A stretch of DNA of 64,000 nt from Macrostomum hystrix (taxonomy: Eukaryota > Animalia > Platyhelminthes): the NCBI GenBank assembly GCA_950097015.1, contig CATNEN010000001.1, positions 992,001 to 1,056,000 on the forward strand, read 5' to 3'. Of the stretch, positions 7,478-37,475 are shown piece after piece. A program made the position numbers and the translations under genes. The notes under the pieces are model-generated. The model searched no databases. It worked only from the letters and a program-made list of their open reading frames with translations, and had not been told where the DNA came from. Position 1 is the stretch's first letter. Every line of letters begins with the position of its first letter.

Positions 7478-8114
7478 CCGAGGACTGGACTGAGGACTGA
7501 GGATGAACCGAGGATGTACCAGAGGACTGAGGATCAACCGAGGATGTACCAGAGGACTATTAATAATAGTTGGGAAGTTTGGACGCGGCTTGTTAATCCC
7601 ATTTCCCAAGGATGACTTGGTCTTGAAATTGATTATTAATTAATTGTCAATTGATTAAAATATAAATTAAAATATAGATTGAAGTATTAATTGATTAAAA
7701 TGCTAAATACGACTTATTGTTTTTTTCTTAGCTATAGTTGTATGGACAGGCCTCTATAATTTCGTTTATTATATGAAATTGTAGGCGTGCAATAATACAA
7801 CTATTATCGTACATTATACAGCCATACTCGTATAAGTTAGTTGGATAAGTTTGAAAAAGTAAAGTACAAACGACTAATAAATTATTATACACTTTCGTAT
7901 CGCTAGATATAAGATATTACAAGATGCACTATTAAAACGTGCAGACTATAGGTATGTAGTGCATTAAATTGTGTGTATTTTAACATAGACATATCTGCTT
8001 GGTACAGCTCGATTTTTCGCGATTTTTTTCTTCGTATCCACATTTTTTCTTTCGAAAATACAGTCAGACGTTTTTGGCCGTAGACACAAAAAACGGCTGC
8101 ATATAATTCATATT

Positions 8115-11215: not shown

Positions 11216-11313
11216 TGCTCACGCATTGCCGTTAGGCCGCACGTTAGTCAGATTTCAGCTTTTTTCTGAATGCTTTCAGTTGGCTAACGTGCGGCCTAAC
11301 GGCAATGTGAGCA
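11216..11313. other. Long hairpin with perfect 24-bp arms
   Basis: CATTGCCGTTAGGCCGCACGTTAG (11224-11247) / CTAACGTGCGGCCTAACGGCAATG (11284-11307). Confidence 0.9.
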
Positions 11314-12012: not shown

Positions 12013-13377
12013 TTAACTTGCGACATCGTCTTTAAGGTCGGCGGTCAGAACCAATTCTGCTGCGGCATCGGCATCTCCTTGCGGCACAGTCACATCAGAT
12101 AGCTGTTGAACCGAATCGTTGTTGACATCAGCAATGATGATCTCCATTGCGACATCAAACATATCATCGATGTGACTTGCTTCGGAATGGGCAGCGAAAT
12201 CCGATCCAGCAGCAGCAGCAACACAATCCGTATTGGTAGACAGAACTTGCATAGCGGCAGGTTGCATCAAGTCGAGCAGAATCTGCGCCATTTCAATGTC
12301 ATCACCGTGACCGGATGATGTACCAATACACACTGACTGCGTGCTGACATTGGATTCGATTGAAACATCGGTCACACTGTTTTGTGCACTGACACCAACT
12401 GTCGCTGTTGTTACTCTGGGCGCACAGACAGGAATAAAAACAGGTAGCGGCACCGGAACGAAATACGGCACGTCGACAGTTGGAATCGGCAACATAGGCA
12501 TCGCTGGTGATCCGATCGGCTCAATTTGCAAAATTGGCATTGATGGCGATGGTACTGGCGAGTGATCCGATTGGATTGTTTCTGCTGCTGCTTCAATCGC
12601 ATTGTGATTAAGCGGAGTAGATGTACAAATTGGATGCCGTACTGATCCAATTGACACGCTGTCCGCTTGGCTCACATGTTCAGCAGGCTCGTCAGTACTT
12701 GTTGCATAGATGATGCCTGATTCAGCTGCGCTATCTTCTATGATGATAGTTTCTGCTGGCTGCTCTGCTGCTGACTGCTCTGCTGATGGCTGCTCTGCTG
12801 CTGGCTGCTCTGCTGCTGGCTGCTCTGCTACTGGCTGCTCTGCTACTGGCTGCTCTGCTGCTAGCTGCTCTGCTACTGGCTGCTCTGCTACTGGCTGCTC
12901 TGCTGCTGGCAGTCGACGGGCAATGTAGCGCTCGTGCATATAGTCGACAATCTCGCCGACCACAGCTGGTAGTGGATCCAGTTGTTCAAGCTGGACCACT
13001 TCGCCCATTGCCGCTGCTCCCGCCACTGCCACTGGCTGAGCTGGTTGGCCACCGACGCGACGCTGCGGATTCCGCTTACATCTATATTGATAATGCAACA
13101 TGTTGGACGTTATTTTGTTGCAATGCGGACACGCTAGCACACGTCCACCGGCAGCGACATCTACACCAGCCCGCTGTAGTTGCAGCATCTTCCAGACGGC
13201 ACTTCCACGCTCCTTAACCGACGCGAATAGCGATGGCCTTTGACCAACAGGTAGGACTGTCCAATCAAACTCGGCATGGACAGCTTTATGCGCCTCTATA
13301 AAATGTCTTCGCATCATACTGGCGCTGATTTGCTGGCCGCAGAAATGGCAGAAGCGGAGTCCGTTATTGTTTTCCAT
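12013..13377 (-). CDS. Zinc-finger protein (ZF-A) copy with a premature stop ~50 aa before the normal end
   Basis: CHFC...RRHFIEAH and CPHC...H...C motifs, EQPAA repeats; the rest of the gene continues to ~11850, as in 46802-48349. Confidence 0.7.
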   Translation of the reverse strand: MENNNGLRFCHFCGQQISASMMRRHFIEAHKAVHAEFDWTVLPVGQRPSLFASVKERGSAVWKMLQLQRAGVDVAAGGRVLACPHCNKITSNMLHYQYRCKRNPQRRVGGQPAQPVAVAGAAAMGEVVQLEQLDPLPAVVGEIVDYMHERYIARRLPAAEQPVAEQPVAEQLAAEQPVAEQPVAEQPAAEQPAAEQPSAEQSAAEQPAETIIIEDSAAESGIIYATSTDEPAEHVSQADSVSIGSVRHPICTSTPLNHNAIEAAAETIQSDHSPVPSPSMPILQIEPIGSPAMPMLPIPTVDVPYFVPVPLPVFIPVCAPRVTTATVGVSAQNSVTDVSIESNVSTQSVCIGTSSGHGDDIEMAQILLDLMQPAAMQVLSTNTDCVAAAAGSDFAAHSEASHIDDMFDVAMEIIIADVNNDSVQQLSDVTVPQGDADAAAELVLTADLKDDVAS

Positions 13378-13574
13378 TGCAGCTTGTATAGTAGATCGCT
13401 GGCTAGCTTGCTGCATAATCGACAGAGTGATCGTTGTGGCTGACTTTTAATTATCGATTTGCGTGCGCGCGCGCATATATTTACCAAGCACTGCTCATAT
13501 CCTGTACAGAGCAGCAGTCAGACACATAGACATAGACAGACATCGTCAACTGGGTCTAAGCTATTTCCATATAT

Positions 13575-15250
13575 CAGTATTTTCGCGAAAATACTGATAT
13601 GCTCTAAACAAAGGTAAGAGCAGTATTTTTGCAAAAGTTTTTGAAGTAGTGTGCATGGCTACATCTTATGGTATTTTCGCGAAAATACTGATATGCTATT
13701 AAACAAAGGTAGTTAGCGGTATTTTTGCAAAAGTTCTTGAAGTAGTGTGCATGGCTACATCTTATGGTATTTTCGCGAAAATACTGATATTGTTGTACCG
13801 GTCGTCCTGCTAACAATGCGGGATCCGGCGAACTCCAATATGAAGTCCAAGAATACTAGGTAGTGTAGTAGTAGGGCTGCCACCAGGGCGTCAGGACTTC
13901 TGCCTTCGGTGAGGTGAAGGATCCTTGGCCCGAAAGAGATAAAGTCACGAAGTCTCGAGAAGCACACAGTGCAGAGTTTCAGTTGCAATTACAGGCCGTC
14001 AGTGTCCTGCGTAGCTCGGATGGTGGGGTGGAAGGCTAAGTTAGTTTCGGGACTTAGCCAGAACTGAGCTTACGTGCAGTCACATGCAGAGACTGAAGTA
14101 GGAAACTTAGACACTCGATGGCACTGACAATAGAGACTGAAATAAGTCAGAGAAAACGTTAATGACAGAAAGTGGAAGGGTTGAGCCGGGAGAAAGGGAT
14201 GAGGACCAGAGGAGCGGGGAGCTTTCTTTTATAGGCAGGGGCCTCCCATAGGGTCAGTGCAGAGTTAGAAAACACGTGATTGAATCACGTGGTTTCTAAA
14301 AATAGCAACTGACGTCAGTGGCGCCAGAAACGTCACTCCTACGTAGGTTCCTGTCCCATAATCAAAGCCCCAAGTGCAGTAAACATGTTTACTTGCACTT
14401 TAAAAGACAAAGAGAGAGGCCAGTCGCATGAGGAGAATCACGCGCTGACTGAGTGCAGACAACCACACACAAAGAAAAGGACAAGGGACAAAAAAGCCAG
14501 CGCGGGACAAAGAGGTGATGACTCATCCCTGGGGGGAAGAGACAGCACACTCAAAGTACAGGCGCGGCCGGGGAAGGGAGGGGCAGAGAGGGACAGACCA
14601 GACAACGCCAGAGAGGGCGGGCCGGGCAGCCACTCAATGCTAGCAAAAAGAGGGCACCTAAGCTACCTTGCAGGTGGGGCTACTGACAGCTAGTGAGACA
14701 CCAATAGGCCCCTAAGCAGTGGCTCACTACAATATGCTATTAAACAAAGGTAGTTGGCGGTATTTTTGCTAAAGTTATTGAAGTAGTGTGCGTGGCTACA
14801 TCTTATGGTATTTTCGCGAAAATACTGCTATGCTATTAATCAAAGGTAGTTGGCGGTATTTTGCAAAAGTTCTTAAAGTACTGTGCATGGCTACATCTTA
14901 TGGTATTTTCGCGAATGCAGATACGTATTCTCAGACAAAGTGACTTGTACTTTTTTACCATCGACAAATTTAGTATATTTCTGCTAATTGCCAAGAGTCA
15001 TGTATGTATTTTTTTCGCGAAAAGACTATAACGTTACTATGATGAATATATTTTTGCAAAAATGCTATGTTCTCAAAACGAAGGTAAGAGCAGTATTTTT
15101 GCAAAACGTCTTAAAGTGTGCACATGGATACATCTTATGGTATTTTCGCGAAAATACTGCTATGCTATTAAACAAAGGTAGTTGGCGGTATTTTTGCAAA
15201 AGTTCTTAAAGTAGTGTGCATGACTAGATATTATGGTATTTTCGCGAATG
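13575..15250. repeat. ~100-bp palindromic repeat array interrupted by the solo LTR
   Basis: Repeated GTATTTTCGCGAAAATAC / TTTTGCAAAA units either side of 13791-14731. Confidence 0.8.
13791..14731. mobile_element. Solo LTR (941 bp) inserted in the 100-bp array
   Basis: TGTTGT...ACTACA termini; 4-bp TSD ATAT (13787-13790, 14732-14735); removing it restores the repeat unit AAAATACTGATATGCTATT. Confidence 0.85.
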
Positions 15251-15663
15251 CAGATACGTATTCTCAGACAAAGTGACTTGTACTTTTTTACCATCGACAA
15301 ATTTAGTATATTTCTGCTAATTGTCAATAATCACGAATGATTTTTTTCGTGAAAATACAATATATACTGTGTATCTGCGGCTTTTAAGAAAACGAGAATA
15401 GTTTAATCTTAGTTTAATCAGATGATAATCAAATGATTTCATTTGTAAATTAATTTATTTACTAACGAAATAATCACAGTGTTGACAATCATTAGCATCT
15501 TAACAATATAAAAGAGAGCAACAAACAGAACATATGAGATTCTCGGTTGTAAAGGGACGGGTATTAGTGGGGGTATCACAATTGACACAATTGATAATAG
15601 TTTGGCAAATCAGACAATCAGCACATAAAAAGTCAGGTGACACGACTGGGACAATCTGAGCAT

Positions 15664-17520: not shown

Positions 17521-17702
17521 TTCTGTTTGACATGAATGTTATAAATATTTGTTGATTATTTTACTATATTTCTTTATATGTAAATTTAAAAATATAAAGG
17601 CATGTACAACATATTTTCCTCGCTCGCACTCAGTCTCTCTATTGAAATTGCAATAGTGGCAATTCAGCCCGGCTGTGTAGTCTATGGTTTTTTATGTAGC
17701 GA

Positions 17703-18007
17703 TTCTTATGCAGCAAAAGAGCCCGGCCGAGTCCCCTATGCTTTCTTATGCAGCAAAAGAGCCCGGCCGAGTCCCCTATGCTTTCTTATGCAGCAAAAGA
17801 GCCCGGCCGAGTCCCCTATATGCTTTCTTATGCAGCAAAAGAGCCCGACTCAATCCTTAATGCTTTCTTATGCAGCAAAAGAGCCCGACTCAATCCTTAA
17901 TGCTTTCTTATGCAGCAAAAGAGCCCGACTCAATCCTTAATGCTTTCTTATGCAGCAAAAGAGCCCGACTCAATCCTTAATGCTTTCTTATGCAGCAAAA
18001 GAGCCCG
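17703..18007. repeat. 40-bp tandem repeat, 8 cores, two subtypes
   Basis: TTCTTATGCAGCAAAAGAGCCCG followed by GCCGAGTCCCCTA (x3) or ACTCAATCCTTAA (x4). Confidence 0.9.
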
Positions 18008-18383
18008 CGACCCGCTTTGCTATAATTCTAAATTGATGACTACTGATAGAAATTGTTGCCGTGTTAGGTGCGAGATCGGTTGGCTGATTGAATACATATA
18101 CCAGTCATGATAATTTTGTTTCAAATGGCGCAGTTGTGACAGCAGCGGAATGCAGTTCGAACATTCTATGAAATGAGTTTCTTGCAGGGTATTATCTTAC
18201 GTTACATGATGACTGCAGCCCCATGCCACTGCCCGCACCTGAGTTAGGGACCCATTTCGCACTGTGATGATCGATCGAAATTTTTCCAATATACTGTGGG
18301 ATATATAGTGACTATAGCGGTATTAGCTAGTGTTAGACGCGTTGCTGCTGCACTCACGACATTGTTGGGTGCGTAGAACCACG

Positions 18384-18803
18384 ATGAATGCTCATCCTGT
18401 GGCGCTGTTCGGCTCGCCGGCCATCGTGGCACTCCTGGCCAGATGCGACATCGCCTGCCTGGCCCCGTTCCTGGCGCACCGAGGACGACTGGAGCAGCTG
18501 ACCTGCCTGCAGCGCCACTGCCCGAATGCTGAGCTGAATGCCACCCAGCTACACACCTTGCTGAAGAGCCTCCTGGACTGGCTGCTACAACACCAGACAG
18601 CTGCGGGCTACGAGACTATCCTGGAGGTGACCTGCCTAACAGAGAACGAGGCTTTCGACTTGGCCGAGCTGCTAGGCCTGCTGGAGGACACCTGTTCGGA
18701 GCTGCAGCACATTCTACACGGGCTGGACTACTGGCGCGGCGTGCAGCAAAGGGCAAGACTGCGAGAGTTGTTCCGGAGTCGCGAATATCGAATGGAGCAG
18801 TAG
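18384..18803 (+). CDS. ORF C family homolog, lineage B (139 aa)
   Basis: Aligns by eye along its length with the 6480-6860 protein. Confidence 0.75.
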   Translation: MNAHPVALFGSPAIVALLARCDIACLAPFLAHRGRLEQLTCLQRHCPNAELNATQLHTLLKSLLDWLLQHQTAAGYETILEVTCLTENEAFDLAELLGLLEDTCSELQHILHGLDYWRGVQQRARLRELFRSREYRMEQ

Positions 18804-18957
18804 CAGCAGCAAAAAGACTTAGCTACTAGACAGTTAAAATAACTTATCCCTGTTTGTGAACCCAAACCAAGTCTGCACCAATAAAAGAACTAAGGTGGCA
18901 GATCCAACTCGATACCGGTAAGTTTATTTTGGATAACCTAAAAATAGACCGTATAAG

Positions 18958-19095
18958 AGTACAGTTCGTGGTGCGCGCACAATCCCTAAGAAATATATAT
19001 ACAAGACGATTCGATTAGAGCTGCTTATCTACCTAAGAATAGCAGGCAAGTCCTTATATATTTTTAAGTAATGTGCGCGCACTATGAACTGTACT
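18958..19095. repeat. Inverted-repeat site B1 (putative protein-binding/origin site)
   Basis: GTACAGTTCGTGGTGCGCGCACAATCCCTAAGAAATATATA ... TATATATTTTTAAGTAATGTGCGCGCACTATGAACTGTAC. Confidence 0.9.
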
Positions 19096-19190
19096 TCTAG
19101 CTAAAAGTACACAATCAACTTAACCGGGATCCGAATTAACCTAATTAAGCACCTATTAATAGAATCTGAGTCGATCAGTTTAAAACTATA

Positions 19191-19228
19191 AGATCAATAT
19201 GCGCGCACATGTGCGCGCATATTGATCT
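19191..19228. repeat. Perfect 38-bp palindrome 1
   Basis: AGATCAATATGCGCGCACATGTGCGCGCATATTGATCT. Confidence 0.95.
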
Positions 19229-19447
19229 ACTAGAAGTAGTAGTAACACTGGTACTATCTGCTGCTCATCCTAAATAGCCTGCTCCTCCTCCTTGGGACGT
19301 ACTTGGGACTCTATTATTAATAGCGAATCCCACCCTGTTGCACCCAGTTGAAGTTGAGTACCTGGGACTGCGTTGGCTTTCTGCAGCCTGCTCATTTTCA
19401 TACATCCAAATTTGAACGCGCCTATAATTAACCTGCGGAAGCACAGA

Positions 19448-22240
19448 ATGTCGTTCAACTTTTCAACCGGCTGCGACAGCGACGATGAGCGAATTGCGGC
19501 CGCGCTGGACGAGTTTGAGAGAGTTGCCCAAGATAGTAACTCCGCCGGGCCGGTAGCGTCATCAACTCGCCAGCCACCATCACAGCGAAAAAGAAAGAGC
19601 GCTCCCTCTCAACGTCGGATTGTCAATGCAGCAGCCGCAGAATCTACGCCAGGCCCAAAGCGTATATATACTTTCACCCCAGTGCAGACAGCAGCGGTGG
19701 CTAACATCAGCAGCGACGCCGACGACTTCAGCCTGCTGCCATTGAGCGGTGTCATGCGCCTAAACACTGGAGAGCAGCAGCCTGCCAGTGACCAGATGTC
19801 CACAGGCAATCAGCAGCCACCGCCTGCCAGTATATCGGCCGTCTACGCGCCCATCTCCCACGCGATGGCAGCCTCAGCCTCGACTGCGCCAAAAGGGAGC
19901 ATGCTGGCTTGGCTCGGAGATCAGCACCGGAGTGCCAAGAAGGCCACCAGCAGATGGTCATCGCCGGCAGCGATCAGGCACGTCAGGCGACATGCTCCTG
20001 CCAACTGCGGCGATGGCGACGGGGCGGCGTCTGATGCGCCCGACATGTCCACGGCAGCCCTACAGCCTCGCAGCCCCGTCGTCATCGAGATTGAGGACGT
20101 CGACGACGAGCGCGCCGATAACGGCAGGCCGACAGCGGCAACTCGCACAAAGGCGGAGCCATCGGAGCCTAACGAGCAGGAGGCGGCGATGGATAGCGAC
20201 GACCGCGATGCTCTGCAGGCACTGCTGGACTACGAGGCGTCCACCGTTGCGCTGTCAGTCGCTGCAGATCCCCCACCGTCGGGCGCTGATGCGGAAATGG
20301 AGGAGGCCGCCAGCACGGTGCCGAAACCGCCTCAAGTCGCGGCCGACCAACAACAGCAGCCAGGGAGGCGGAGATTCCGTTTCCAGCGGCTCGAAACGAC
20401 TGCTCCCGCTGTTGCTGCTGCTGCCGACTGCTCCATTGTGGGCGCCATGGTGCCAGACTCGCAGCCCGATGGCCGACGATTAGCAGTCGCCAAGACCACA
20501 CCGTCTCAGCGTCCGGAAGATGAGACGACGGCCTACGTGGTGTCGCCTGGCACAGCGGCATTCGCAGCAGCCGTGGTGGCCGCTATGAATGAGGCCAGCC
20601 AGTCCGTCCCTGTCGGCGAGGAGTGGTGGCGCATATTAACACCACAGCCGCTGCAGCAACAAGAGCAGGTGCAGCTCGAGCGTCCTCCCTCGCTGGTGCC
20701 CTTCAGCTACAGTCCGCCGGCGTCTGCGGCACAGCTTATTCACTTCCTCCAGCAACAGCAGGGGGACAGCGAGGCGAGCGGGAGCGGGGTCGGCGGCGCC
20801 AGAGGACAACGAGGCGGCCGAGGGGTGCGACGGCTGGGCCAAAATCCGCTGCTTAATGCGGCAGCAGCACAGCAGCAGTTCACTGTGACGCGCTCAGTCA
20901 GCCGGCCGCTCGCAATGACCGGTGCTGCTCCTGCGGAGCGACTGCCCGAGGACAGCGGCATTCTGACCGGGCGCCGCTATTTGCACGTCTTCCACATCGA
21001 CAAGGTGCGCTTCGTCGGTGAGTCACTTGCTTTGTTCATAAGCTCTGAATCATATAACCAGCTGCTGGCATCCACTGTTTCCATGCTGCCTACATAAACA
21101 GGTCGTGCCAAAGTATATCTGGGCGAGGCTCTGGAGGCACACTGTGTCGAGCTCGTCCTGGCGTCCAGCCCGGGCCTCTGCGTCGGCATGGATGAGTTCT
21201 GCGACCGGCGGCTAGTCGCTGACCCGCTCTCCGTCGACGAGATGGAGCAACAGCAGCAGCAGCAGCAGCACAGCGAGTATCGGCCACACCGCACTCTGTC
21301 CGGCTTCGTGCGCCTGGAGACCAACGCGGCCGGCTGGCATTTGTACGAGCTGCTGTTCAGCCTGCTGCCTAGCCGAGACGAGGGACGCTGCTTTGTGGTG
21401 CCCGACCGGACCACCCTGACGCTGTGCGGCGTCCGCTCGCCAGACAGTGTGCTGCGGAGCCTGACGCAGCACGACGGCTACCCGCTGCTGATCGGGATCG
21501 GCGCCACGCAGTGCAGCATGCTGGTGCAAGCGACTCGGTGGGCGCTGTCCTACCCGCTGACTGCCAACCTGCCCGACCAGACTGACGGCTTCTTGTTGGC
21601 CCACCAGCAGATGCGCGCCACGTTGCTGGGGGTCTTTAGAGACGTGCAGCGCCAGCGCCGGATTCGCAGGGAGCAGCTCGCCGGCTGTTCCGCATGTTCC
21701 ACCGAGGCTGCCGACATTAGGAACCTGTGCCCGCTCCGAGAGGCCGTCTGCACAGCCCTTCGCCACCAGTCGGGCGTTGTGTACCTTTACGGGCCGTCGG
21801 GAGTCGGCAAGACCACCGCCGTCGAGCGCCACCTGGGCCAGGAGCGCGTCTTCTGTCCGGACATCAAGCGCTTCGGTGGCAATGACTTCATGTTCGACGG
21901 CCTGGACACCGCGCGCCACTCCGTCATCTTTCTGGACGAGGTGCGGCCGCACATGTTCGAGGGCGGCGACCTGGAGACCACGCTGTTGCGCCTGCTGAAC
22001 GGCAACAGCTTCCTGGTCAATGCGAAGCACCAGGCGCACGTCTACCTGGACTGGGGCCAACGGCTGGTGATCATGGCCGGCCACGCCTCACCTGACGACT
22101 ACCCGGCTGACGTGCAGCGGCGCCTGCGCAACGAGGGCAACACGTGCGTCGAGGTCGACCACGACATCGAGGCCTGCCAGGGGGGGTGCCGCCAGCAGCC
22201 AATGTTCGGAGCCGCCGCCGCCAACGCCCAGGTTGAATGA
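19448..22240 (+). CDS. Rep-B: disordered N-terminus, degenerate HUH-like domain, SF3 helicase (exons 19448-21017, 21102-22240; ~902 aa)
   Basis: GTGAGT...AAACAG intron joins two ORFs in frame; GPSGVGKT, IFLDE, LLRLLNG..F.VNAK, QRRL; aligns with Rep-A across the splice. Confidence 0.8.
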
Positions 22241-23719
22241 GGCCGCCTTTATATGTCTGTCTGTCTGTCTGTCTATTGCTAAATTATTTCATCCCTGCGC
22301 CCGTATTTTGTCTCCACCACCATCTTAAAGCGGGTTAGCAGATGTGGGCAGGCAGAAATAGCTAGACGGCCAAAATATTACATAACAAAATATTAGTCCT
22401 TATTGGGCTAAATAAGGAATGGCTTTTGGGTTCGGCTGTTTAACAGCACCATATATTATAATCTATACCTGGCACGCAGTTGCAGAAAACGGGGTAGCAG
22501 AAATGTGCGCGGACTATAGCAATTTATAAAGCATTAGATGGGATTAGTTTAATTGAATTAAATAGCGCGCAGTGTTTTCCTAGTGTTTTTGTTGCTCGTC
22601 AGTCTAGATGTGCTAAGAGATGGAGATGGCATTTATTACTTGTTCTCAGGATCGCTTCTCGCTCTTATCTGATTGCTTTTATTTTGAGTTCTATTATTTC
22701 AGAGTCAATATTTTCATTTAGCATATGTCGCAGGCTGTCGACAATTTCAATTGTCCCCATTTTATTGCCGTTCTACTTTTTCTGTACCGGCTCCATTAAA
22801 CTTTTTAATCCCTCACCGCCAACAAATAGTTGTTGTTGTTGTTGCTGTTGCTGCTCTCCAACAAGTTAGATAGATGGGCAGCTAGAATAATTAACAATGA
22901 TTGCCTACCTTGTGGAGCGCAGATAAAAATCACTTTAAACGCAGTCGTCGTCGTTGGGGTCGCAGCTGGAGCGGAGCAATCGGAACAGTGTAGGGGGCAG
23001 TTGAAACGAAATAGTAGATCACGAAGGAGCTGATTTGGTTGATTAATAGAGTTGGTATTGAAAATCAAAGTGTAGCTTGGGAACGATCGAGTCTGTCTTA
23101 ATCGATTGGCATAGAGAAATCAATCAGTGCGCGAGCTAGCTCTCTTTGACTTGTGTGCTCAAGATGAGCAATACAGTCCTTCCTGATAAAATTTAGTTTC
23201 TATGTGCCTAAGCTTTGTCTATGTCTTGAGTTTATCGCATTCCTTTATTAATAGTAGTCTAAAAATAATTTTACACACACGCAGTTGTTATGTGCTTATT
23301 TGGGCGCTATTTGTGTTATTATAATTTATAATAATTGAGCTATAATAATTTGAGCAAGTATACTAGTATATGGTATGAAAAGCTGACTGCATGCATTAAT
23401 GTGTGAATAAAGGACATAAATCAAGAAAAAGCATTCGATCAAGAACTACATGTAGACGGTACGTATGGATTTGAAAAAAACTAATTTAAGATGATAATCA
23501 ACAAGCGGCATCTGAAACAACAATCTATTAAAATACATGTAGTAATGATGTGTGCATTAAAATACAATTTGGATGGACGCAAAAAGCTATACATATAATA
23601 TAGTAGTACGATTTAATAACGGCAATTAACAGCTGCATATAGTGCTACTCAGTTATTTATAGATTTTATATAAGAAACTAAAATTTCAAATTCGCGCTAA
23701 ATTCTACGAAATTCAAGGT

Positions 23720-23836
23720 GTACAGTCTGTAGTGCGCGCACATTCCCTAAAAAATATATAAGGCATGTCAGCTCTAATTTTAGAACGACGATCCTTATAT
23801 ATTTTTTAAGTATTGTACGCGCACTATGAACTGTAC
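23720..23836. repeat. Inverted-repeat site B2
   Basis: Arms homologous to site B1, different spacer. Confidence 0.9.
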
Positions 23837-24039
23837 CTAAATCTAAAATTAAATTGCTTACTTGACTACTATAAGTAGAGCAGTTAGCAGCATTTGTTTA
23901 ATAATTGTCAGATAAATCTATGGCTAATTAATTCTATCAACAAAAACAATAAAGTATAATATTATCAACGGGAGTAATCAGTCAATCAATACAATCAATA
24001 TTCTTAACTATAGCATATAATATCAATTATAATAACATT

Positions 24040-24077
24040 AGCGTATAAAGCGCGCACATGTGCGCGCTTTATACGCT
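24040..24077. repeat. Perfect 38-bp palindrome 2
   Basis: AGCGTATAAAGCGCGCACATGTGCGCGCTTTATACGCT. Confidence 0.95.
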
Positions 24078-24265
24078 GCAGTAACATGCAGTCAAACGAA
24101 TTCAATTATCCCTCCCTCGAAGGCCTGTGCATGTTTTCTCTGCGTGTTTTCTCTCTGTCCCGGCCCCCTTTATCTGCCCCACGGTGTTTTTCACTCACTA
24201 TTTAAATATTTTATATAAAATCTTAAATAAAGCAGGCAGACAGACAGGCGGGCAGGCAGGGCGAA

Positions 24266-27152
24266 TCAATCAAAATTATGCTCCGCCACTGAGTGCAGCC
24301 GCCGTCGCTTTCCGGCCACCGGTCTACCGTGCAGGACTGCGTCGGCTCGTTGGGTGCTCGCCGCCACCTCCCCACTTCCACCAGCCAGGCTGCTGATGAG
24401 TCCCTGGGTCGGCGGCCTAACTATTGGTCGCATCTCTGCGTCACCTGATGGCACCACAAACCGGCGGACAATATCGCGGCTGCGAATTACTGTGCCCATC
24501 TCGGTGGCCATCTGGGCATTGTGCCCATAATTGTACCGGATGACAGCTGCAGATGTGCCGTGCGCTCTGGCGAACATATCCAGCTGCTCCGGCTCCATCA
24601 TGAGCACTACGGCACAGAGGGTGCGACGCCAGTGCGTGGCCACATAGTGCCGACCCAGTACTCGCTGCCCGCCTGCGCTGATCATGCGGCTCATTGCCGA
24701 CTGGCTGTACACACCGCCGAACACATCAATGAAGACGGTCGGCGACTCCGGTTGCTCGATGCCGCGAGCAGCAAGCGACGGCACGATATATTCGTCGTGC
24801 AGGCGCAGCAAGGCCTCGCAGAATATATCCGGCAGCACCATCCTGGCTGGGTCGCCGGAGTGTCCGACCTTGTGCGGCACTTCACGCAGCGGCAGGACGA
24901 GATGCGAGTGCCCAGCCAGATCGGCAGCGGACGGCCCGCTCCCCCCATCTGCACTTTGCGTGTGTTGGCGGAACAGCTGTTTTTGGTCGGCCGACGCGTT
25001 TCGCCGAACCGAACGGTCGACCAGGTGTCGCCGTCTCAAGTATATCCACGGCAGAAGTCGCAGTGCCTGCTCGACGCTGCAGTAGAAAAGCATCTCCTGC
25101 ACTATCCGCCGCAGACATACCATCCGGCGACTGAAGGCGCCATCATCTGCTTCGCCGTTGTCTTTAGTGTCATCAGCGATGCCATCAGCGACCACACCTG
25201 CTGCCTGCATGCCCCATTCGCCGTCGACTGGCAGTGAAGACCAGCTGTGTCTTTGGAGCATGATGAAAAAGCGGTCTCGACGGGCGAACACGGCATCAAC
25301 CTCGTCCACGTTGACGTAGGTGTTCATAAATGCCACCTGCCGCTCATTGTGGCCAAGCTTGTAGACGGCCTGCATAGTATAAATGTGGTTGCGTTTACTT
25401 CTAGTAGATAGCAGCACGAAACCAAATAGAACTAACTGTCATTAATGCAGCTGCTGTGCAGCTATAGCCTACCTGCTGTATGGCTCGGACATTGCCGAAC
25501 TCGCCACGAGCCTGCTGCACCACGCTGCTAAGGCGGGCGATGAGAGCCTGCTCAGCCGCCAGCGGGTTGTTGGCCTTCTGCGCCAACTGCATTCTCCAGC
25601 AGACGCCACTGCCGACAGAGTCGACGTCCTCAATAGCAGGGCGCTCGGTGTCAGGCGAGGGTGAGTCGATGCTGCAGAACAGCTCGGCTTCGCGCAAGCC
25701 AACGGCGGCCATGATGGCATTGGCGCCTCGCAGGCCCCTCACGCGTAGCCAGCCCTCCTTGCAGCGGCAGATGCTGACAAGCTCCTGGCACTTGCGCGCA
25801 GCAGTCGACTGGGCCAGCTGCATGGCGTCACCGACTGTTTCAGCGCTGAAGCAGTCCTGCACCCTGTCCGGCTGAAGCAGCAGGTCTGCAAGCGATATGC
25901 CCGCTCGCTGCCAGGTGCGTAGAAGCGTCGAGCTCACGGACCTGCTGATGTCGCGCCAACGCTGCTGGTGGCACAAGTTGGCCGCAATCCTGGCCCGCGA
26001 TGGGTCCCTCCACCATAGCTCCCGCAGGCGTTCCACCGTTGCGGAGATGCTGGGCCGGTCACCCAACGGCTGCAGCAGCTCTGGTGGCACGGGCTTCGCA
26101 GGTGGCGACGTGCGAAAGTGTCGACAGCGCGGACCGCGACGCTGTTGCTGCTGCTTCTGATCGGCTGTCGACGCTTCCTGCTGCAGTTCTGCTCCGAAGA
26201 TGGACTTTTGAAGCCGGTCGAATTCGGCACTGGCCAGTTTTATCTTCAACGCAGCCCACCTTGCTGCAGCTGCTCGACGCTGCCTCGGCGGAGTAGCTGC
26301 CAGCTTCACTAGCGGCCTCTGTGCAGCCGACACCACAGCCGATGACGTGCTGGGACGATTAAGCGCCGACTTAGTGGCCTGCACCGCCAACTGCAGACAG
26401 GCAGCCGAAGAGGAAGACTCTGCTGCCACCGTATGGACCGTCGACAGAGTCCGCATTCTGATGCTGGTTCCGGGCAGTAGCTCCTGCAAGCCGACATCGT
26501 CATCTCCATCGTCAGCGTCCTCCTGTGAGGACATTAGCAGCAGCGGCGCAGTCGGGTCAAATAGGCGTCGCCGGACGGCTGGACGGCTGGCTGACGACAG
26601 CCGAGCACTGGCCGCTGACTGTCGACCGTAAACGGACGGCGCGGCGATGCTGTAGAGCTCGGCCAACAGAGACCCAGCCTCGTATTCAGCTGGTTCTGCC
26701 TCTGAAGGCTGCTGCGGAGGCGGTGGTGGCATCTGCTGCGGAGGCGGTGGTGGCATCTGCTGCGGAGGCGGTGGTGGCATCTGCTGCGGAGGCGGTGGCT
26801 GCTGGTGTTCCACAGCAACGGTAGCAACAACAGCTGGCACTGCTGGACAACTGTGCTGCCTTGCTGTCCTACGCAGCACCTTGCCGCAGGCTGGGCACGC
26901 ATGTACATGCTCAGTGTTGGCTGAGCTGCGCGTGTGGGTGCTGCACGTCAGGCAGAGCCAGACCATCTGGGCACGCTGCTTGGCTGACGCCGCTGCCCAA
27001 GATGCCTCGGACGGCCGCACCTTGACTGGGGCATCATCGAGTCGGAATTGGCGCACAGCCTCCTCCGCGTGCCTCCTCAGGAAGTGGCGCTTCGGATGCG
27101 TCTGCGGTCTGCCGTCGCCACAGAAGATGCAGCACGACTCGTTGTCTGTCAT
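24266..27152 (-). CDS. YR-B: zinc-finger plus tyrosine recombinase (exons 27152-25473, 25369-24266; ~927 aa)
   Basis: In-frame GTAGGC...TGCAG intron; candidate catalytic set ALR, HK, THWRR (HxxR), AHGTSAAVIRYNY; N-terminal CIFC..HFLRRH / CPAC; homologous to YR-A. Confidence 0.75.
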
Positions 27153-27415
27153 AGCTATTGTTATTACAAATTGATGCAGTGCCATATAGGTGTATGAACT
27201 GAATTCAGTATACATGCTCAATCAACACATGCTATGTACAGTCCGTTGTGCGTGCATCTAAATAAATATATATATGCCCCTATATCCCATTATGGAATAC
27301 ACTATTTTAAGTGTTGTGCGCGCACATTGTCCCGTACTGTTGTCATCGCTGCTGCATTTATATTCGATTGAGTGCTGCGTTGAGCACATAAATCACTTAT
27401 TTTTATGTTGTACCT

Positions 27416-27446
<31 letters not shown>

Positions 27447-28561
27447 TCCCGGCTGTAAAAATTATAAGCCTCTGAATCATTTATAAATTTTAAAAACATA
27501 ATTTTTCATTTGCTATGTAGTACAATCAGCGTGTGTATGTCAATCAATCGACCTCGTCGAGCAATCAGTTCTATATTATAGAGTTCGATGTTTGGCTGCT
27601 ACATGTATGCCGAGACTCCCCACTGTGAGAGCCCCAGAAGAGGTTTCTTGTTCTCTCACATGCCGATCACATAACGACAGTGCGTCAGTTATTAATTTAG
27701 TCTCTGGCCAAAAGTACTGGCCTCATTTTATGTGCATTCTTACAGACCGCGAATTTATTGGCCTAAATTAAATCGATCGGCAGTCTCTGACCTTGTGGCT
27801 GTGTCCTCTATGGCTTAAAAGTAGCATGTGGCGCGTCTTAATTGGCCAATAGCTCACTGACGCAGACGCAAGCTGCCATAGCACTTAATTCTTGCATACA
27901 TAGAGAATTCACTAAGCACTGTGTTGCGCATAGTGCAACACTTTTAGTCACGCAGGCGGCTATAAGCTCTTTGATATTGTAGTTATTTGAGGAAATAACG
28001 AAGTAAAAGGCGCTCCGACATCTGCTAAATCAAATATTTGAGTTTTTTTTTATTGTAATGTTTTTTATTTGCTATTATTAGTATTATGTTTTTATGTTGA
28101 ACATTCACATTTACAATTTAAAAAAGTACATAATGAATATTAATGAGTAAATAATGAATAATAGTGAATAAAATATTACATTAAGTTACGTTTAAAGACG
28201 GCGAGAAAATCTAAAGGAAGGGAAAATGAAAAGGAAGAGATGTCAAGATAGGAGAGACGAGAGGAAAGGTTGGACAAGAGTAGAGAATGAGGTAAGCACA
28301 AGACCAGGAGAGCCCCTGGGCAGTGGCCTGAGGTCGGACCGAGCTAAGGAACTCTCAGGTCCACTCCCATCGGGGGCAAGAAAAGAAGCAGAAGAAGAGC
28401 TAAATCAGAAATACTGTATACAGCAAAAAACTATCCCCATTTCAATCCCATGTTAAAAATTTATCCCCATTTTGCTTCCATCCATCTCCAAGTCAGTTAA
28501 TCTCCCTGAAACCCCTGTTCCTAATTCATCTCCGATTCTAGGTTCCCATTTGTCGACTTAG

Positions 28562-28915
28562 TTAATTCCGACCTAGGTCCGGCCTAGCACCACCACCACG
28601 ATCGACCCGCTCAGCCCAAGTGCGCAGCCAAAAGTCGGCAATGTTTATTGGCGCAGCCAATAGCTCGCGCACTCTCTCGCGTGTCGGCGGCCCTCTGACG
28701 ACAAATACGCGCCCGTCCTCCATCCGCACGACGGAGATGCCAGGCGTCGACTGTATGGCAGCGATGAAGGACGGGTAGCCGGCTGCCAATACCTCGCCCT
28801 GCGAGACACCAACTGCTCGCATGGAGGTGCACAGTTGGAGCAGCTCGATAACACCACCGCACGAGTCGATGATCATCGAGATGGCTCGGTGCACGACTGC
28901 GCGGATTTCCTCCAT
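28562..28915 (-). CDS. Stand-alone LOTUS/OST-HTH-like protein (117 aa)
   Basis: IIDSCGGVIELLQL...AGYPSFIAAIQSTPGISVVRMEDGRVFV pattern resembles LOTUS domains by eye; upstream TATAAA and downstream AATAAA on the minus strand. Confidence 0.55.
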   Translation of the reverse strand: MEEIRAVVHRAISMIIDSCGGVIELLQLCTSMRAVGVSQGEVLAAGYPSFIAAIQSTPGISVVRMEDGRVFVVRGPPTRERVRELLAAPINIADFWLRTWAERVDRGGGARPDLGRN

Positions 28916-30213
28916 TGTCTAGATTAAATGATGCAAGAAATATAGCTAATCACTGGCTTGAGTCGTCGCTGCCGCATATGCCACCGCCGCAATGGAATCA
29001 GTATTTATAAAACCGTCAGTTCGGTTATATGAAATACACACAATGCAGCAAATTAAAAGAGCAGAGTGAGAGTCAATCTGTGTCAGTATCGGTAGTCAAC
29101 CGATCTCGTTATCAATCATATATATATGTATTGATTTTATCGCATTACAAGTATATGTATAGAGAGTGCATGTGAGTAAATCGTTTAAAAGTTAGCGAAT
29201 ATTTTGTTTGTTAGTTCTTGCTGCTGCTGCTAATTTCCTACTAAGACGGGGCTCCCTCTGAGGGAGAGAGCCCGAAGTTCCAAAAAGAAGCGTGCCCTGC
29301 ACTATATGCGTACTACATTTGTTTACGCTTTAGCAAACCCCTCGAAAAGCTCAGACATTCGATTTTCCAGTGAACAGCACACCCACCCCCTCCAACTCGA
29401 TCTTCCTCCCTCAAAAGCAGTGCCGAGCCAGCCAGACAGACCTGCAGATGGAAAGAGAGACGACTTCGATCGTCTTCAGTCTATGGCCACAGGGGTGACA
29501 TTATCGATTGGTTAAAGCAGACACACTGCTTCTCTTTTTCAAGGCAGAGCAGTGGCCTTCCACACCCTTTTACCATAGACTATGAATTTAGAGACAGGGC
29601 CGCCCCCTTTCGCTTTCGAAGGTTTAAAGAAAGGGTGGCAAGCAAAGTAGCAGTCTTTTAGTTTTAGCCCGGCCCAACTGCTCGATCGAACTGCAGCTTA
29701 CAGTCAAATATAATTCAGAGATTCATTCACAATTCGAATCAACAGTCTGCCTTCTATTTGCTTGGACTATATTAAAACAGGCTACAGATATAATATCGAC
29801 AGAGAGCCACAGGATCTATTATTATGTCAACAGCAAGCATTAGGATCTAATATATTTCTAGGCAGCTCAGAACTGCATAACACTTACAGAGATTACTAAT
29901 ATATTATAATTATAGAGAACTGCATGCGCTATTATCTATTAGATTAACAGACCGATTGTTATATGTATACAAATACTAATTGAAGGGCCTATTATATATA
30001 CAAAGACTAATCTGAGGGCCTATTATATTAACACAGCTTGTAATGCATATTTATGAACAGATACTTATATGGCCTATTTAAAATACATAGCCTTTTTCTT
30101 ATTTGCAGCGCAACAGACAGCATCAGCAGAAGCATCAGCAGAAGCAACCGACAGCATCAGCAGAAGCATCAGCAGTAGCAGCAGTAGCAGCTCAGTAGCA
30201 GCTCAACAGCTCT

Positions 30214-30730
30214 AGCAGCATCAGTACCAGCAGCCAGCCCCATCTGCCCGTGCCCACTTCGAGGTGCAGCAGAAGCAGCAGTACCAGCAGCCAACCCCGT
30301 CCGCCTGTGCCCACTTCGAGGTGAGATAAAAATTAAATTGTACAGCTGGATAGCATTAGTTAGCCTCAGCAACTATATTCGAGTAGACTTTAGCGTCGAA
30401 ATTATATTCTAATTGCTTTTTTCCATGCTCATCCTCAGCTCAGTGCAGCTAAACCGGCCGGCACCAGCCAGCAGCATCAGTAGCCGAAGCCAGCCCCGTC
30501 CGCCTGTGCCCATTTGCCAAGCAGCAGCAGTAGCAGCAATAGCAGCAGTAGCAGCAGTTGCAGCACAAGCAGCAGAAGCAGCAGTACCAGCAGCCAGCCC
30601 CCGTCCGCCTGTGCCCACTTCGAGGTGAGATAAATATTCAATTGTACAGCTGGATAGCATTAGTTAGCCTCTGCGAAATATAATCGAGTAGACTTTAGCA
30701 TAGAAATTATATTCTAATTGCCTTTCCGTG
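30214..30730. repeat. Local direct duplication (~150 bp) within AGC-rich sequence
   Basis: GTGCCCACTTCGAGGTGAGATAAA...ATTATATTCTAATTGC at ~30307-30417 and ~30611-30721. Confidence 0.7.
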
Positions 30731-31260
30731 TTTTTTGCTTGTCGTCGCTGCCGCCGCCAGTCAAAGTTAAATAAAATTATTGAATGTCATAAGACATAGA
30801 GTCTGTGTCAATCAGTGTCAATCAGTCAGTCAATCGATCTCGAACGAAACAATACATTCAGTATACTGTACACTGCTGCTGCTCTAATGCAATATCAATA
30901 ACGAGAGAAAAAGAGTGCTTGCGAGCAAAGCCATAGAGGAAGCGTGGTCTTCCCAGTTCTAAAAATAGCTGCAGAGCTAGCGCGTGAATTTAAATACGCG
31001 TGAATTTAAATACACTGTTTACGTTGTTATAAACGAGAGAAGATGAAAGTGATTTTAGGAAGGCCTTTATGTTCATTTTTTGTCTTAATCTGAATTCCGA
31101 ATAAATAAATCTAAATAGTAAGCTAAATGGAGCAGAACTGAACTGCTGCGCACTGAAATATAAGCGCTATACGAAAATTGCTGTTTGCGTTTCAATGAGG
31201 CCCAAATGGCTCTCCGAAAAGACCGAATAATGAGTCGAAAAAAGCTGGGCAAAAATCTGA

Positions 31261-31641
31261 AAATTAGGAAAGTATATTGACAAATTTCCCTCCTTCACCG
31301 CGGCGTTCCGGGAACACGTACTGGCCTCCGCTGCGGCCGAATTGGAAAGCGCATTGCGAGCAGCGATGGATGCAGCGACAGCAGTGGCGGCAGCGGAGGC
31401 CTGGACGCCGGGACGTCGCGGGAAGGAGGCCGAGATGGCTGCCGCTATGCGGCGGGTCCGGGCGGCCATGGTCCGCATGGCCTGGGCCCGCCGCATAGCG
31501 GCAGGGCTGGATCCATATGTGAGTAGTAGATTTCGATTCCTTTCATTTGAATATTTATGAACACATCTGATAACATCTGAGCTAACAAACTAAATGAAAC
31601 CTAAAAACCCATCCTTTATCCCGCAGCCGGGTGTCCTATGA
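31261..31641 (+). CDS. ORF D paralog (no in-frame ATG at the usual start; last exon 31627-31641)
   Basis: KFPSFTAAFREHVLASAAAELE...AWTP...GLDPY|PGVL*. Confidence 0.55.
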
Positions 31642-32870: not shown

Positions 32871-32965
32871 CTCACGCACTGCCATCAGGCCGCACGTTAG
32901 TCAGATTTCAGCTTTTTTCTGAATGCTTTCAGCTGGCTAACGTGCGGCCTGATGGCAGTGTGAGC
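32871..32965. other. Hairpin copy 2 with compensatory changes
   Basis: CACTGCCATCAGGCCGCACGTTAG (32877-32900) / CTAACGTGCGGCCTGATGGCAGTG (32937-32960). Confidence 0.9.
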
Positions 32966-33497: not shown

Positions 33498-34733
33498 TCA
33501 ATTGCCGCACAGACATTGTCGCGTCTTGATCAATCGGCCGTGTCTTGACACTGTCGTAGTCAATATATTGTGTGTGCATATACAATACGAGCGTCTAGAT
33601 GCATGCAAAGCATCAGTCGCAGGTATAGTAGATTGCGATGACTGCACATCACTGATTGACATTGCGACATCGTCGTCAAGGTCGGCGGTCAGAACCAATT
33701 CTGCTGCGGCATCGGCATCTCCTTGCGGCACTGTCACATCAGATAGCTGTTCATCAGAATCGTTGTTGACATCAGCAATGATGATCTCCATTGCGACATC
33801 AAACATGTCATCGATGTGACTTGCTTCGGAATGGGCAGCGAAATCCGATCCAGCAGCAGCAGCAACACAATCCGTATTGGTAGACAGAAATTGCATAGCG
33901 GCAGGTTGCATCAAGTCGAGCAGAATCTGCGCCATTTCAATGTCATCACCGTGACCGGATGATGTACCAATACACACTGACTGCGTGCTGACATTGGCTT
34001 CGATTGAAACATCGGTCACACCGTTTTGTGCACTGACACCAACTGTCGCTGTTGTTACTCTTGGCGGACAGACAGGAATAAAAACAGGTAGCGGCACCGG
34101 AACGAAATACGGCACCTCGACAGTTGGAATCGGCAACATAGGCATCGCTGGTGATCCGATTGGCTCAATTTGCAAAATTGGCATTGATGGCGATGGTACT
34201 GGCGAGTGATCCGATTGGATTGTTTCTGCTGCTGCTTCAATCGCATTGTGATTAAGCGGAGTAGATGTACAAATTGGATGCCGTACTGATCCAATTGACA
34301 CGCTGTCCGCTTGGCTCACATGTTCAGCAGGCTCGTCAGTACTTGTTGCATAGATGATGCCTGATTCAGCTGCGCTATCTTCTATGATGATAGTTTCTGC
34401 TGGCTGCTCTGCTGCTGACTGCTCTGCTGATGGCTGCTCTGCTGCTGGCTGCTCTGCTGCTGGCTGCTCTGCTACTGGCTGCTCTGCTACTGGCTGCTCT
34501 GCTGCTGGCTGCTCTGCTGCTGGCAGTCGACGGGCAATGTAGCGCTCGTGCATATAGTCGACAATCTCGCCGACCACAGCTGGTAGTGGATCCAGTTGTT
34601 CAAGCTGGACCACTTCGCCCATTGCCGCTGCTCCCGCCACTGCCACTGGCTGAGCTGGTTGGCCACCGACGCGACGCTGCGGATTCCGCTTACATCTATA
34701 TAGATGATGCAACATGTTGGACGTTATTTTGTT
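33498..34733 (-). pseudogene. ZF-A copy truncated at its 5' end by the left end of the complete unit
   Basis: Identity to 46802-48349 stops at ...GTTATTTTGTT, followed by CCTAAAATG. Confidence 0.85.
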
Positions 34734-35691
34734 CCTAAAATGTTGAAAGGGGGGGTCTGGTCAAGGCAAAGGGGTGTCTGGTCCAGCCAAGCCCCAGCCA
34801 AGGCCCCAGCAAGACCAAAACGGACCTCTGTTGTACGTGTATTCTAAATCGGTGCGAGTTTTCCCCAGAGACGACGACCCTAATTGGGATAGCCTTTATA
34901 AAATGTTCTATATTTAGAAATACACTACGGAGATAAAAAAAAAGGTCATTCGGCTTTTACAGCCATAGACGTGTGCAAGAAATACACTAAGGAGATAAAA
35001 AATGTCTTTTCAGCTACGCATGCGCCTGCTGTAAGTAGTAGCTATAGCAGTGCAGAAACTGGCTAGTCAGTGAGTTGCAGAAATTTGGATTTCGGCTTTG
35101 GTTTTTGGCTTTGGTGCTGTCGCATATTCTAAGTCTATCCTGAAGTCGCAGCAGCAAGTTGGCGGATAGTGAAAGCGAGGGATAGTGAAGAGAGGATCAA
35201 ATCGAAGGAAGGGGAGGAAAGCAAAAGTAGGTTGACTGCACAGATTGTAGATTTGTACTGATGTGTTACTTTCGCGAAAAAATATTTGGAGGATAGTATA
35301 CAGGAGGAAAGTGAAAGCGAGGGAGAGTGAAGAGAGGATCAGGATCATCAGATCCTGAATCAGAATCCAGAATCCTGAATCCAGATTCCAGAATCATCAG
35401 ATTAAAGGAAGGGGATCAGGAAAGCGAAGGTATAGGGGAGGAAGCTAGGACAGAGTGAAGGGAGGATATGAGAGTGAGACACCATGCACCACCTACCCAA
35501 CCTGCACCTGCACTCTGCATCCACCCACCCAACACCACACACCACACCACACCACACCACACACCACACCACACCACACACCACCCACCCAACACCACAC
35601 ACCACACCACACCACACCACACACCACACCACACCACACACCACACCACACACCACACCACACCACACCCTGCAGCAGAACTCCAATTATA

Positions 35692-36284
35692 AGAGTTTAT
35701 GGACTTAGAGAATTTACAATCTGTAAATTCTCGACCGTCCCAAGGCTTAAATAGTGTGGTGAGATTGGGGCGGGATAGAGGGAGCCAGTTAGTATATACT
35801 CTAAAGAAAGGTGCGCGTTGTATATTTTCGCTGGAGGCAATATGATCGACGGAGATTATATCTAGATCGGGCTTGATGACGACTAGTTACTATAATAGAT
35901 GACCGAAAATGCATGGTGTTTCTATTTTTAGCCTAAGGCGCACCTTTCTTAAGAGTATATACTGACTTGCGTGCCCCATAGACTTCAATAGGCTGCCATT
36001 TAAATACACACGAGCCAGCTTGTATATATATACTCTTAAGAAAGGTGCGCCGTAGGCTAAAAATAGAATCGAATCGCCCGGGGTTTAGCCAGCCCGGCTA
36101 TATACTAGCCCCCATATGCCGACGACGACGACGAAGTCAAGTTGCGAAAAAACAGCTCGCGCACCTTTCTTTAGAGTATATATATAATACCTGCATTTAC
36201 TCCACCAGCCACACCAACTAAGCTCTGGGGACGGTCGAAAATTTTATCACTGACATGATAAAATTCTCTAAGTCCGTAAACTCT
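35692..36284. repeat. Large nested imperfect palindrome, complete (593 bp)
   Basis: Outer arms AGAGTTTATGGACTTAGAGAATTT / AAATTCTCTAAGTCCGTAAACTCT; four inner ~24-bp motifs in alternating orientation. Confidence 0.9.
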
Positions 36285-36654
36285 AGTTTATACGTATAGA
36301 CCGAGTGGGCAAGCAGCATCGGCTGCCTGAATCACATATCCGTACATATATGTGATGGATGTCGATTCGAAAACTGACTTGGCTGTGAATAGACTCAAAT
36401 GCTGGTATTTTCGCGAAAAGTGTATTTATTTTCGCAAAAATACTGATATGTTTCCAAAACAAAGGTAAGGGTAGTATTTTTGCAAAACGTTCCTGAACTA
36501 CTCTCTATATTCGCTGAATAAAAATTATCAGTCTGTTAGAAAAAAAATTGTATTAGTGGTCAAGATTTCACCATTTGCAGACAAACGTCATTAAAACTCG
36601 AACATGCGAAAGAAAATAAATATAAATAGCCAGATAACACACTATTTGATTGTT

Positions 36655-36738
36655 AGTGATCTGGCGTGCAGGTCTAAGGCATTTCTCTCTAATACCAGTG
36701 GCTCGGGTTCGAATCCCGGTCAGCCTTACGCTTTTTTT
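36655..36738 (+). ncRNA. tRNA-like putative Pol III unit
   Basis: TGGCGTGCAGGTCTAAGGC, GGTTCGAATCCC, TGATC/GGTCA stem, TATAAATA upstream, T7 downstream. Confidence 0.6.
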
Positions 36739-36924
36739 GTTATTAAAAAAACAGCTAACATTTTACTATCAATGAAAATAAATCTTTACTAGAAATCTAT
36801 TTTTTTATATTCGAATCCCCACGTTTTGTGGATCCCCATTATTATTAACGTACTTTTGCTCGAATACGCCAGTTAAGAAAAGAAAAGCAATATAAATAGC
36901 CAGACAACACACACTTTAATTGTT

Positions 36925-37007
36925 AGTGAACTGGCATGCAGGTCTAATGCATTGTCGCTAGTACAAGTGGCTCGGGTTTGAATCCCATTCACCCAACGCA
37001 TTTTTTT
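36925..37007 (+). ncRNA. tRNA-like unit, B box mutated (GGTTTGAATCCC)
   Basis: Near-identical to 9774-9857. Confidence 0.5.
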
Positions 37008-37475
37008 ATTTAAAAAAAATGGGCAACATTATACTAGAAATGAAAAAATATTTTTACTAGGAATCTGTTTTTTTATATTGGAATCCACACTTTTTGTGTG
37101 GATCCCCATTATTATTAATGTTTACTTACTACTGCAATATTACTTATAGTAGGGCCGATTGCACCTGAAGTAGTAAAGTATACTGCGAAAGTAATTGAAT
37201 TAACATGGCTAGTCTATATACTTGTAATGGTTTTTTCGCGAAATAGCCATAGAAATTTCATCTATTAGTATTTGCGAATTGGGGATTGCAATACACACGA
37301 GTGAATTTTCGCGAAAAAAAAGTTTTGTCTGTAGTCAAACCTAGAACTACAGTTGAGTACAGTCGCAAAAGTGAGCTATGTAAGACTGAGCGCGCTTAAC
37401 ATCTACTTTGTGACCGACTGACTGACCGACCGAGTAATTACGAGTTAATTCCTACGCCTCGACTTGAATTTTGAA

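Follow-up and report, generated by a model that had tools for sequence, protein, structure and literature searches.

A second, diverged lineage of a candidate helicase- and tyrosine recombinase-encoding DNA element in the flatworm Macrostomum hystrix

A 64-kb stretch of the genome of the flatworm Macrostomum hystrix (assembly GCA_950097015.1, contig CATNEN010000001.1, positions 992,001 to 1,056,000; hereafter the window, to which all coordinates refer) carries many copies of a repeated element, lineage A, together with a diverged set of the same genes, lineage B. The intact gene set of lineage B lies at 18.4–27.2 kb and comprises open reading frame (ORF) C, a 902-amino-acid (aa) helicase gene on the plus strand (Rep-B), and a 927-aa tyrosine recombinase gene on the minus strand (YR-B). 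Our preferred interpretation, to which we give about an even chance, is that this is the second intact gene set of a two-lineage family, and that the family is an integrating, helicase-replicated DNA element. Lineage B makes this family testable: set against lineage A, it shows which residues are conserved and points to a candidate binding site of 24 bp.

Gene content of lineage B and its relationship to lineage A

ORF C of lineage B (18384–18803, plus strand; 139 aa) is without a known family and is 45% identical to its lineage A counterpart. Rep-B (19448–22240, plus strand; exons 19448–21017 and 21102–22240) has a low-complexity N-terminus of approximately 470 aa, followed by a Rep-like domain lacking the HUH and YxxK motifs, a CxxC motif, and a helicase domain resembling those of superfamily 3 (SF3). 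YR-B (24266–27152, minus strand; exons 27152–25473 and 25369–24266) contains a Cys/His domain, a linker, a helical domain and a tyrosine recombinase catalytic domain. The reference copies of lineage A are Rep-A (37476–40191, plus strand; 855 aa, one intron) and YR-A (49897–52967, minus strand; 955 aa, two introns), and all four core genes are free of stop codons after intron removal.

For comparison of the two lineages at the protein level, exons were joined by script with an X at each junction. The helicase domains are 43% identical over 166 aa (E = 1e-38), the domains upstream of the helicase 27% over 258 aa (E = 3e-23), the recombinases 22% over 495 aa (E = 3e-26), their N-terminal Cys/His domains 29% over 108 aa (E = 4e-8), and the ORF C products 45% over 112 aa (E = 3e-33). 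When six regions were each compared with 500 shuffles, five scored above every shuffle, with z values of 42 for the Rep N-domain, 38 for the helicase without its P-loop, 43 for the catalytic part of the recombinase, 9.7 for its middle part and 16 for the Cys/His domain; the low-complexity N-terminus of Rep did not rise above the shuffles (z 2.2). An earlier, sequence-only reading of this DNA had proposed that Rep-B, YR-B and ORF C align with the lineage A proteins. This is upheld at 22–45% identity (z 9.7–43), the similarity extends well beyond the P-loop, and the peptide pair quoted in support of it is present in the B/A alignment. The coding DNA of lineage B is also richer in GC, as that reading held: GC content at third codon positions (GC3) is 0.75, 0.69 and 0.76 in B genes and 0.48, 0.52 and 0.47 in A genes, whereas the non-coding GC contents are alike at 0.38 (B) and 0.34 (A).

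The mapped gene strands place the Rep and recombinase genes in convergent orientation in lineage B as in lineage A, in agreement with the same source. The gene order nevertheless differs: in B, ORF C precedes Rep and shares its strand, whereas in A it follows Rep and is encoded on the other strand. The gap between Rep and the recombinase is 2.0 kb in lineage B and 9.7 kb in lineage A, and lineage A has extra ORFs between the two genes.

The recombinase and helicase genes and their relatives

Relatives of the recombinase are scarce. A HMMER scan of 1.84 billion representative sequences recovered eight, two of them from Macrostomum lignano and six of them fragments on contigs of 0.6–2.4 kb; P0013, a 1,084-aa M. 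lignano recombinase, is 41% identical to YR-A. A protein search with YR-B matched none of 5,897 candidates. Recombinases similar to YR-B come from public sources of four kinds. The first Atlas match of the recombinase is a cluster bearing PF00589 (phage integrase) at 0.96, with that family on 17% of its members. A profile of seven family rows is collinear with 20 bacterial integrase domains (24 loci tried) and scores above 60 of 60 shuffles, albeit with an hhalign probability of only 3%. The catalytic R, K, R and Y of YR-B, YR-A and P0013 fall in order on their bacterial integrase counterparts, and every row that extends over the tyrosine position retains this residue; among the fragments, P0009 lacks the first arginine and P0003 has W-K in place of H-K.

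Two unrooted recombinase trees, which include fragmentary rows and omit P0005 and P0006 because these nearly duplicate P0013, split lineage A and P0013 from lineage B and six environmental fragments with support of 100/100. Because YR-B is closer to these fragments (27–33% identity) than to YR-A and P0013 (23–25%), and because of this split, lineage B is not a recent offshoot of lineage A, which supports the prior suggestion of an old and diversified family. The companion claim of purifying selection is supported over the long run by the intact frames of about 900 aa and by the excess of synonymous (pS 0.71–0.82, saturated) over non-synonymous differences (pN 0.34–0.51) between lineages, a contrast that is biased by the protein-guided alignment; dN/dS between the lineages is not estimable because synonymous sites are saturated. 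Among close copies, only two of nine comparisons, both of YR-A, give P<0.05 (dN/dS 0.2–0.3, P 0.015–0.03 uncorrected), and none is significant after correction.

The helicase domain of Rep-B is spanned along its length by PF00910 and PF19263, with E values of approximately 0.002, matches that fall short of the cut-offs of these families. The SF3 order of a compact Walker A, B, B', C and arginine finger is present, and motif C carries a histidine, where SF3 helicases usually have an asparagine. The domain is collinear with the helicases of eight phytoplasma Rep (pCRESS) proteins above 100 of 100 shuffles, a ninth locus having been dropped for its stop codons. A Rep-B protein search gave one match among 7,995 candidates, and none of 7,989 candidates matched the longer Rep forms. 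A tblastn search of plasmids and phages with the helicase gave only chance-level matches, and pattern scans found relatives neither in IMG/VR viral contigs nor in metagenome contigs. P0001, a GenBank model from M. lignano, is 70% identical to Rep-B. The M. lignano annotation is described as built from assembled transcripts (PMC5730564), and we infer from its locus tag that P0001 belongs to this annotation; a B-like helicase gene is therefore probably expressed.

The domain upstream of the helicase is unlikely to be a conventional nickase. Papillomavirus E1 binds and melts a double-stranded origin without nicking, and provides a precedent for such a domain without HUH and YxxK. Motif II (HUH/HUQ) and motif III (YxxK), defined as in PMC10288648, are absent from the A/B alignment in both lineages; at the positions that we chose as equivalent to HUH there is H-L-Y in B and T-V-Y in A. 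As both motifs are missing from both lineages, we rejected the reading of Rep as an active HUH nickase. When a model of the upstream domain without the P-loop was used in a viral fold search, NS1, Rep or E1 proteins made up 20 of the 50 matches listed (20 of 34 named), the background share of such proteins in the library being unmeasured; 11 are parvovirus NS1 or nonstructural proteins, six CRESS-type Rep and three papillomavirus E1, with a best E of 0.0066. A search of the same kind (BFVD) with our first model listed NS1, Rep or E1 in none of 50 rows, and neither it nor Foldseek against PDB nor VIA wide gave anything usable. We suggest that the domain may be a Rep-derived origin-binding domain that lost nicking.

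The introns of both lineages are predicted from the sequence and from homologues. There are five: one in Rep-B (21018–21101, plus strand; 84 nucleotides [nt], phase 1, with an in-frame stop), one in YR-B (25370–25472, minus strand; 103 nt, phase 0), one in Rep-A (39399–39546, plus strand; 148 nt) and two in YR-A (52351–52261 and 51409–51298, minus strand). All are GT-AG, have stops in every frame, and have GC contents of 0.26–0.44 compared with 0.44–0.65 in their flanks. Reading B through against Rep-A, the 84-nt Rep-B intron roughly matches a net insertion of 27 residues, and the homologue P0004 matches both YR-B exons continuously over the junction. As had been proposed, no predicted B position coincides with an A position: in the recombinase genes the introns are offset by 11 codons, and in the Rep genes they lie on opposite sides of the N-domain and linker. 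The further proposal of independent intron gain is plausible, because in two B-like fragments, P0004 and P0009, the reading frame continues across the positions of both recombinase junctions; these fragments may be transcripts, however, and differential loss would also account for the pattern. At the site of the second YR-A intron, ten residues that occur in P0005, a member of the same cluster, are missing from P0013, which suggests an intron common to the clade of YR-A and P0013.

Shared motifs, a proposed mechanism and its alternatives

A GCGCAC...TATATA motif in inverted pairs is common to both lineages, each arm consisting of GCGCAC, 5–7 bases, a purine-rich stretch and TATATA. The pattern has 18 sites in the window, compared with 0–3 in 30 shuffles; twelve are in three lineage A clusters of four arms each (35793–36185, ~1496–1886 and 8899–9290), five are in B hairpins and one is a stray. 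Hairpin h1 (18959–19097) is 65% identical to an A hairpin at the DNA level (E = 4e-4), h2 (23720–23838) is a direct repeat of h1 (~70%), and h3 (27237–27337), upstream of the recombinase, is a degenerate third pair. h1 and h2 flank Rep-B as direct repeats and each is followed by a perfect 38-bp palindrome, the first (19191–19228) with a GCGCAC core and the second (24040–24077) with the same 18-bp core and different arms; the longest palindrome in 30 shuffles is 24 bp. The shared motif is a candidate binding site of 24 bp, and the motif pairs and palindromes could be recombinase or origin-binding sites, with promoter or origin roles fitting equally well; a protelomerase target is a further conceivable reading of the palindromes.

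We propose that the tyrosine recombinase would excise the element as a circle and reinsert it, the donors of such enzymes being typically circular (PMC4642659). The SF3-like helicase would then initiate copying of this circle by host polymerases, the Rep domain binding and melting a double-stranded origin as E1 does, without nicking; copies would pile up, and deletions would then scramble them. More speculatively, and with rather less confidence than in the interpretation as a whole, the family could constitute a new group of capsid-less integrating nuclear replicons of animals, with a tyrosine recombinase and a nickase-dead Rep-SF3 helicase, in which one recognition motif was kept while the proteins fell to 22–45% identity. 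Loss of nicking in a Rep-SF3 helicase is the conversion thought to have given papillomavirus E1.

Several observations weigh against our interpretation. The fold evidence is weak, with pLDDT (predicted local distance difference test) scores of 32 for the first model and 35 for the N-domain model, no match at E<=0.001, and template modeling (TM) scores of 0.13–0.21 for the NS1, Rep and E1 rows. A profile of the N-domain compared with phytoplasma HUH domains is at shuffle level (45 of 100 shuffles as high), and the N-domain has no match over 0.80 in the Atlas and none among PDB sequences. Both catalytic histidines of the recombinase are replaced, that of HxxR by T, G, S, Y or M and the His/Trp before the tyrosine by threonine in seven of seven rows; the family matches nothing in Pfam, PHROGs, NCBIfam or PDB sequences, and hhalign probabilities are 3–4%. 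The motif pattern was drawn up after the sequences had been seen. A capsid gene may lie among the small ORFs (C, D and E, and the ORF of 117 aa), for which the search covered protein families but not folds. Finally, lineage B had been described as nested among A copies, and a clean insertion is not borne out: neither ends of B, terminal repeats, a target-site duplication nor an empty site was found in the window, and both A/B junctions lie inside genes, away from motifs and element ends.

An endogenous DNA virus is the leading alternative, although we consider it unlikely. The helicase and recombinase would then serve the replication and integration of an unknown invertebrate virus, with its structural genes either lost or represented by some of the unassigned ORFs. 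An SF3 helicase preceded by a domain that resembles NS1, Rep and E1 fits such a virus, as do the environmental fragments that include the nearest recombinases to YR-B and the long inverted flanks of the reference A copy, and polinton-like viruses are described as having tyrosine recombinases and primase-SF3 helicases (PMC4642659). However, no capsid or packaging-ATPase family was found among 26 ORFs scanned with Pfam, 10 with PHROGs and 11 with NCBIfam, the IMG/VR scans were negative, and both core genes of both lineages have predicted spliceosomal-type introns.

There is only a slim chance that the genes are immobile relics, domesticated or dead, that no longer move and owe their spread to segmental duplications in this repeat-rich region, even though truncation or rearrangement affects most of the A copies, M. 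lignano assemblies are reported to be rich in duplicated sequence (PMC5730564), and significant constraint is absent from seven of nine close-copy comparisons. Such relics would not be expected to keep a gene pair, its orientation and a cis motif in two lineages at 22–45% identity, and both the four kinds of public source and the retained catalytic tyrosine also count against them. We likewise regard as improbable a rolling-circle element, akin to Helitrons or Replitrons, that uses unusual nickase chemistry or hairpins nicked by the recombinase. The hint of a Rep-like fold, the stable hairpins beside Rep and the partial copies in tandem, ragged arrays point in that direction, but H-L-Y and T-V-Y stand where HUH should be, the YxxK tyrosine is in neither lineage, and Helitrons use a superfamily 1B (SF1B) helicase and Replitrons none.

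The element differs from each of the described systems that it resembles. Cryptons are eukaryotic DNA elements with a tyrosine recombinase, and those of animals have no terminal repeats (PMC3212892). The present family differs in having a linked 900-aa helicase gene in both lineages, a Cys/His domain at the N-terminus of the recombinase, and hairpin motifs; the word "helicase" occurs zero times in that paper, and no Crypton or DUF3504 family matched in our Pfam scan. Polinton-like viruses and virophages combine a tyrosine recombinase and an SF3 helicase in one element of 10–20 kb, and one virophage group is said to favor circovirus Rep-like nickases (PMC4642659; bioRxiv 10.64898/2026.10.13.758929). 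CRESS and pCRESS Rep, NS1 and E1 share the arrangement of origin-binding or nickase domain, helical linker and SF3 helicase, with weak fold and profile matches, whereas here HUH and YxxK are absent, there is a 470-aa low-complexity N-terminus and a linked recombinase, and no capsid was detected. Replitrons and Helitrons are Rep-related eukaryotic mobile elements with hairpins; unlike the genes here, they retain the catalytic motifs, encode either an SF1B helicase or none, and are described in the accessible text without a linked recombinase (PMC10288648).

We know of no replication helicase in the core of Starships, which are fungal and whose recombinase family has no Pfam match here. Like the proposed element, they are mobilized by a tyrosine recombinase through a circular intermediate (PMC10104507; 10.64898/2026.09.21.753150). 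No description of such an element was found in the accessible text of the literature searched (e.g. PMC11071296), with Repbase, subscription papers, supplements and repeat libraries outside that scope. It is possibly a new group of recombinase-mobilized eukaryotic elements. The described eukaryotic recombinase elements either are without a replication gene (Cryptons) or have capsid genes (polinton-like viruses). If our interpretation is correct, an animal element that has no capsid and whose helicase derives from Rep but does not nick would stand between the two as a plasmid-like intermediate. It would also offer a living model of how the Rep of single-stranded DNA viruses could become an origin helicase of the E1 type, and a transgenic laboratory model belongs to the same genus.

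Copies, junctions and neighboring sequences

Self-comparison of the window reveals one long lineage A copy (~36.4–53.8 kb) and many partial copies at 88–98% identity. B-type DNA is limited on the left by a YR-A copy truncated within its first intron (17527) and on the right by A-type ORF D DNA that begins at 31278; the two junction points are non-adjacent in the reference A copy, and no shared repeat of at least 9 nt was found. A second B-type piece (55240–55511, minus strand), the 3' part of ORF C (93%), is fused to the start of a YR-A exon at 55515. Both lineages do accumulate at this locus, one half of the earlier notion; that they also target it is conjectural. The nest of copies is rearranged.

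The whole of 17600–31641 had been assigned to lineage B, which is correct for the genes at 18.4–27.2 kb and not for the ORF D region at 31278–31641 (plus strand), which is A-type (95% identical to 7209–7480 over 273 nt) and beyond the B-specific stretch. ORF D copies at 7122, 10363, 31285 and 45097 (plus strand) have divergent 5' halves and nearly identical 3' halves, a pattern that suggests recombination between sublineages. A 117-aa ORF (28562–28915, minus strand; GC3 0.68) has no counterpart found elsewhere in the window, and its membership of lineage B is uncertain. Its likeness by eye to LOTUS/OST-HTH domains is unsupported, with no match in Pfam or PDB and a negative score against a profile of 24 bacterial domains. 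An Ala/Ser-rich unit lies between these two features, at 30110–30750 (plus strand); within it, an exon-intron-like block is present twice (93% over 157 nt).

Tandem arrays occur in both lineages. A 40-bp array of 7.6 copies (17703–18007) lies near the left limit of B-type DNA, and lineage A has iteron-like arrays of 96–100-bp units at 40697–42053, 48542–49489, 13577–15362 and 3920–4184, many with one perfect 18-bp palindrome. Long A-type hairpins at 11216–11313 and 32877–32960 are unrelated to the shared motif. The long inverted flanks of the reference A copy (36499–37053 and 53513–53797; 75–79%) contain a stretch similar to a tRNA T-arm, with a T run after it; ARAGORN and Rfam found nothing there, and no tRNA or Rfam family was found in the window.

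Other recombinase-related sequences include a stand-alone lineage A gene (minus strand; 12013–13446, 33498–34760, 46802–48355 and 57626–58018) whose N-terminus is paralogous to the recombinase Cys/His domain, and a 334-aa ORF (55721–56725, minus strand) in which a Cys/His-rich start, with no homologue found elsewhere in the window, is fused to a YR-A fragment. A broken recombinase-like fragment (58839–59548, plus strand), which we take to resemble a DIRS-type retrotransposon enzyme from its motifs, is adjacent to an array in which a 16-bp unit is repeated 41 times. Pfam also identifies fragments of a Helitron-like Pif1 helicase (61002–62006, minus strand) and a DDE_3 transposase (62697–63362, plus strand).

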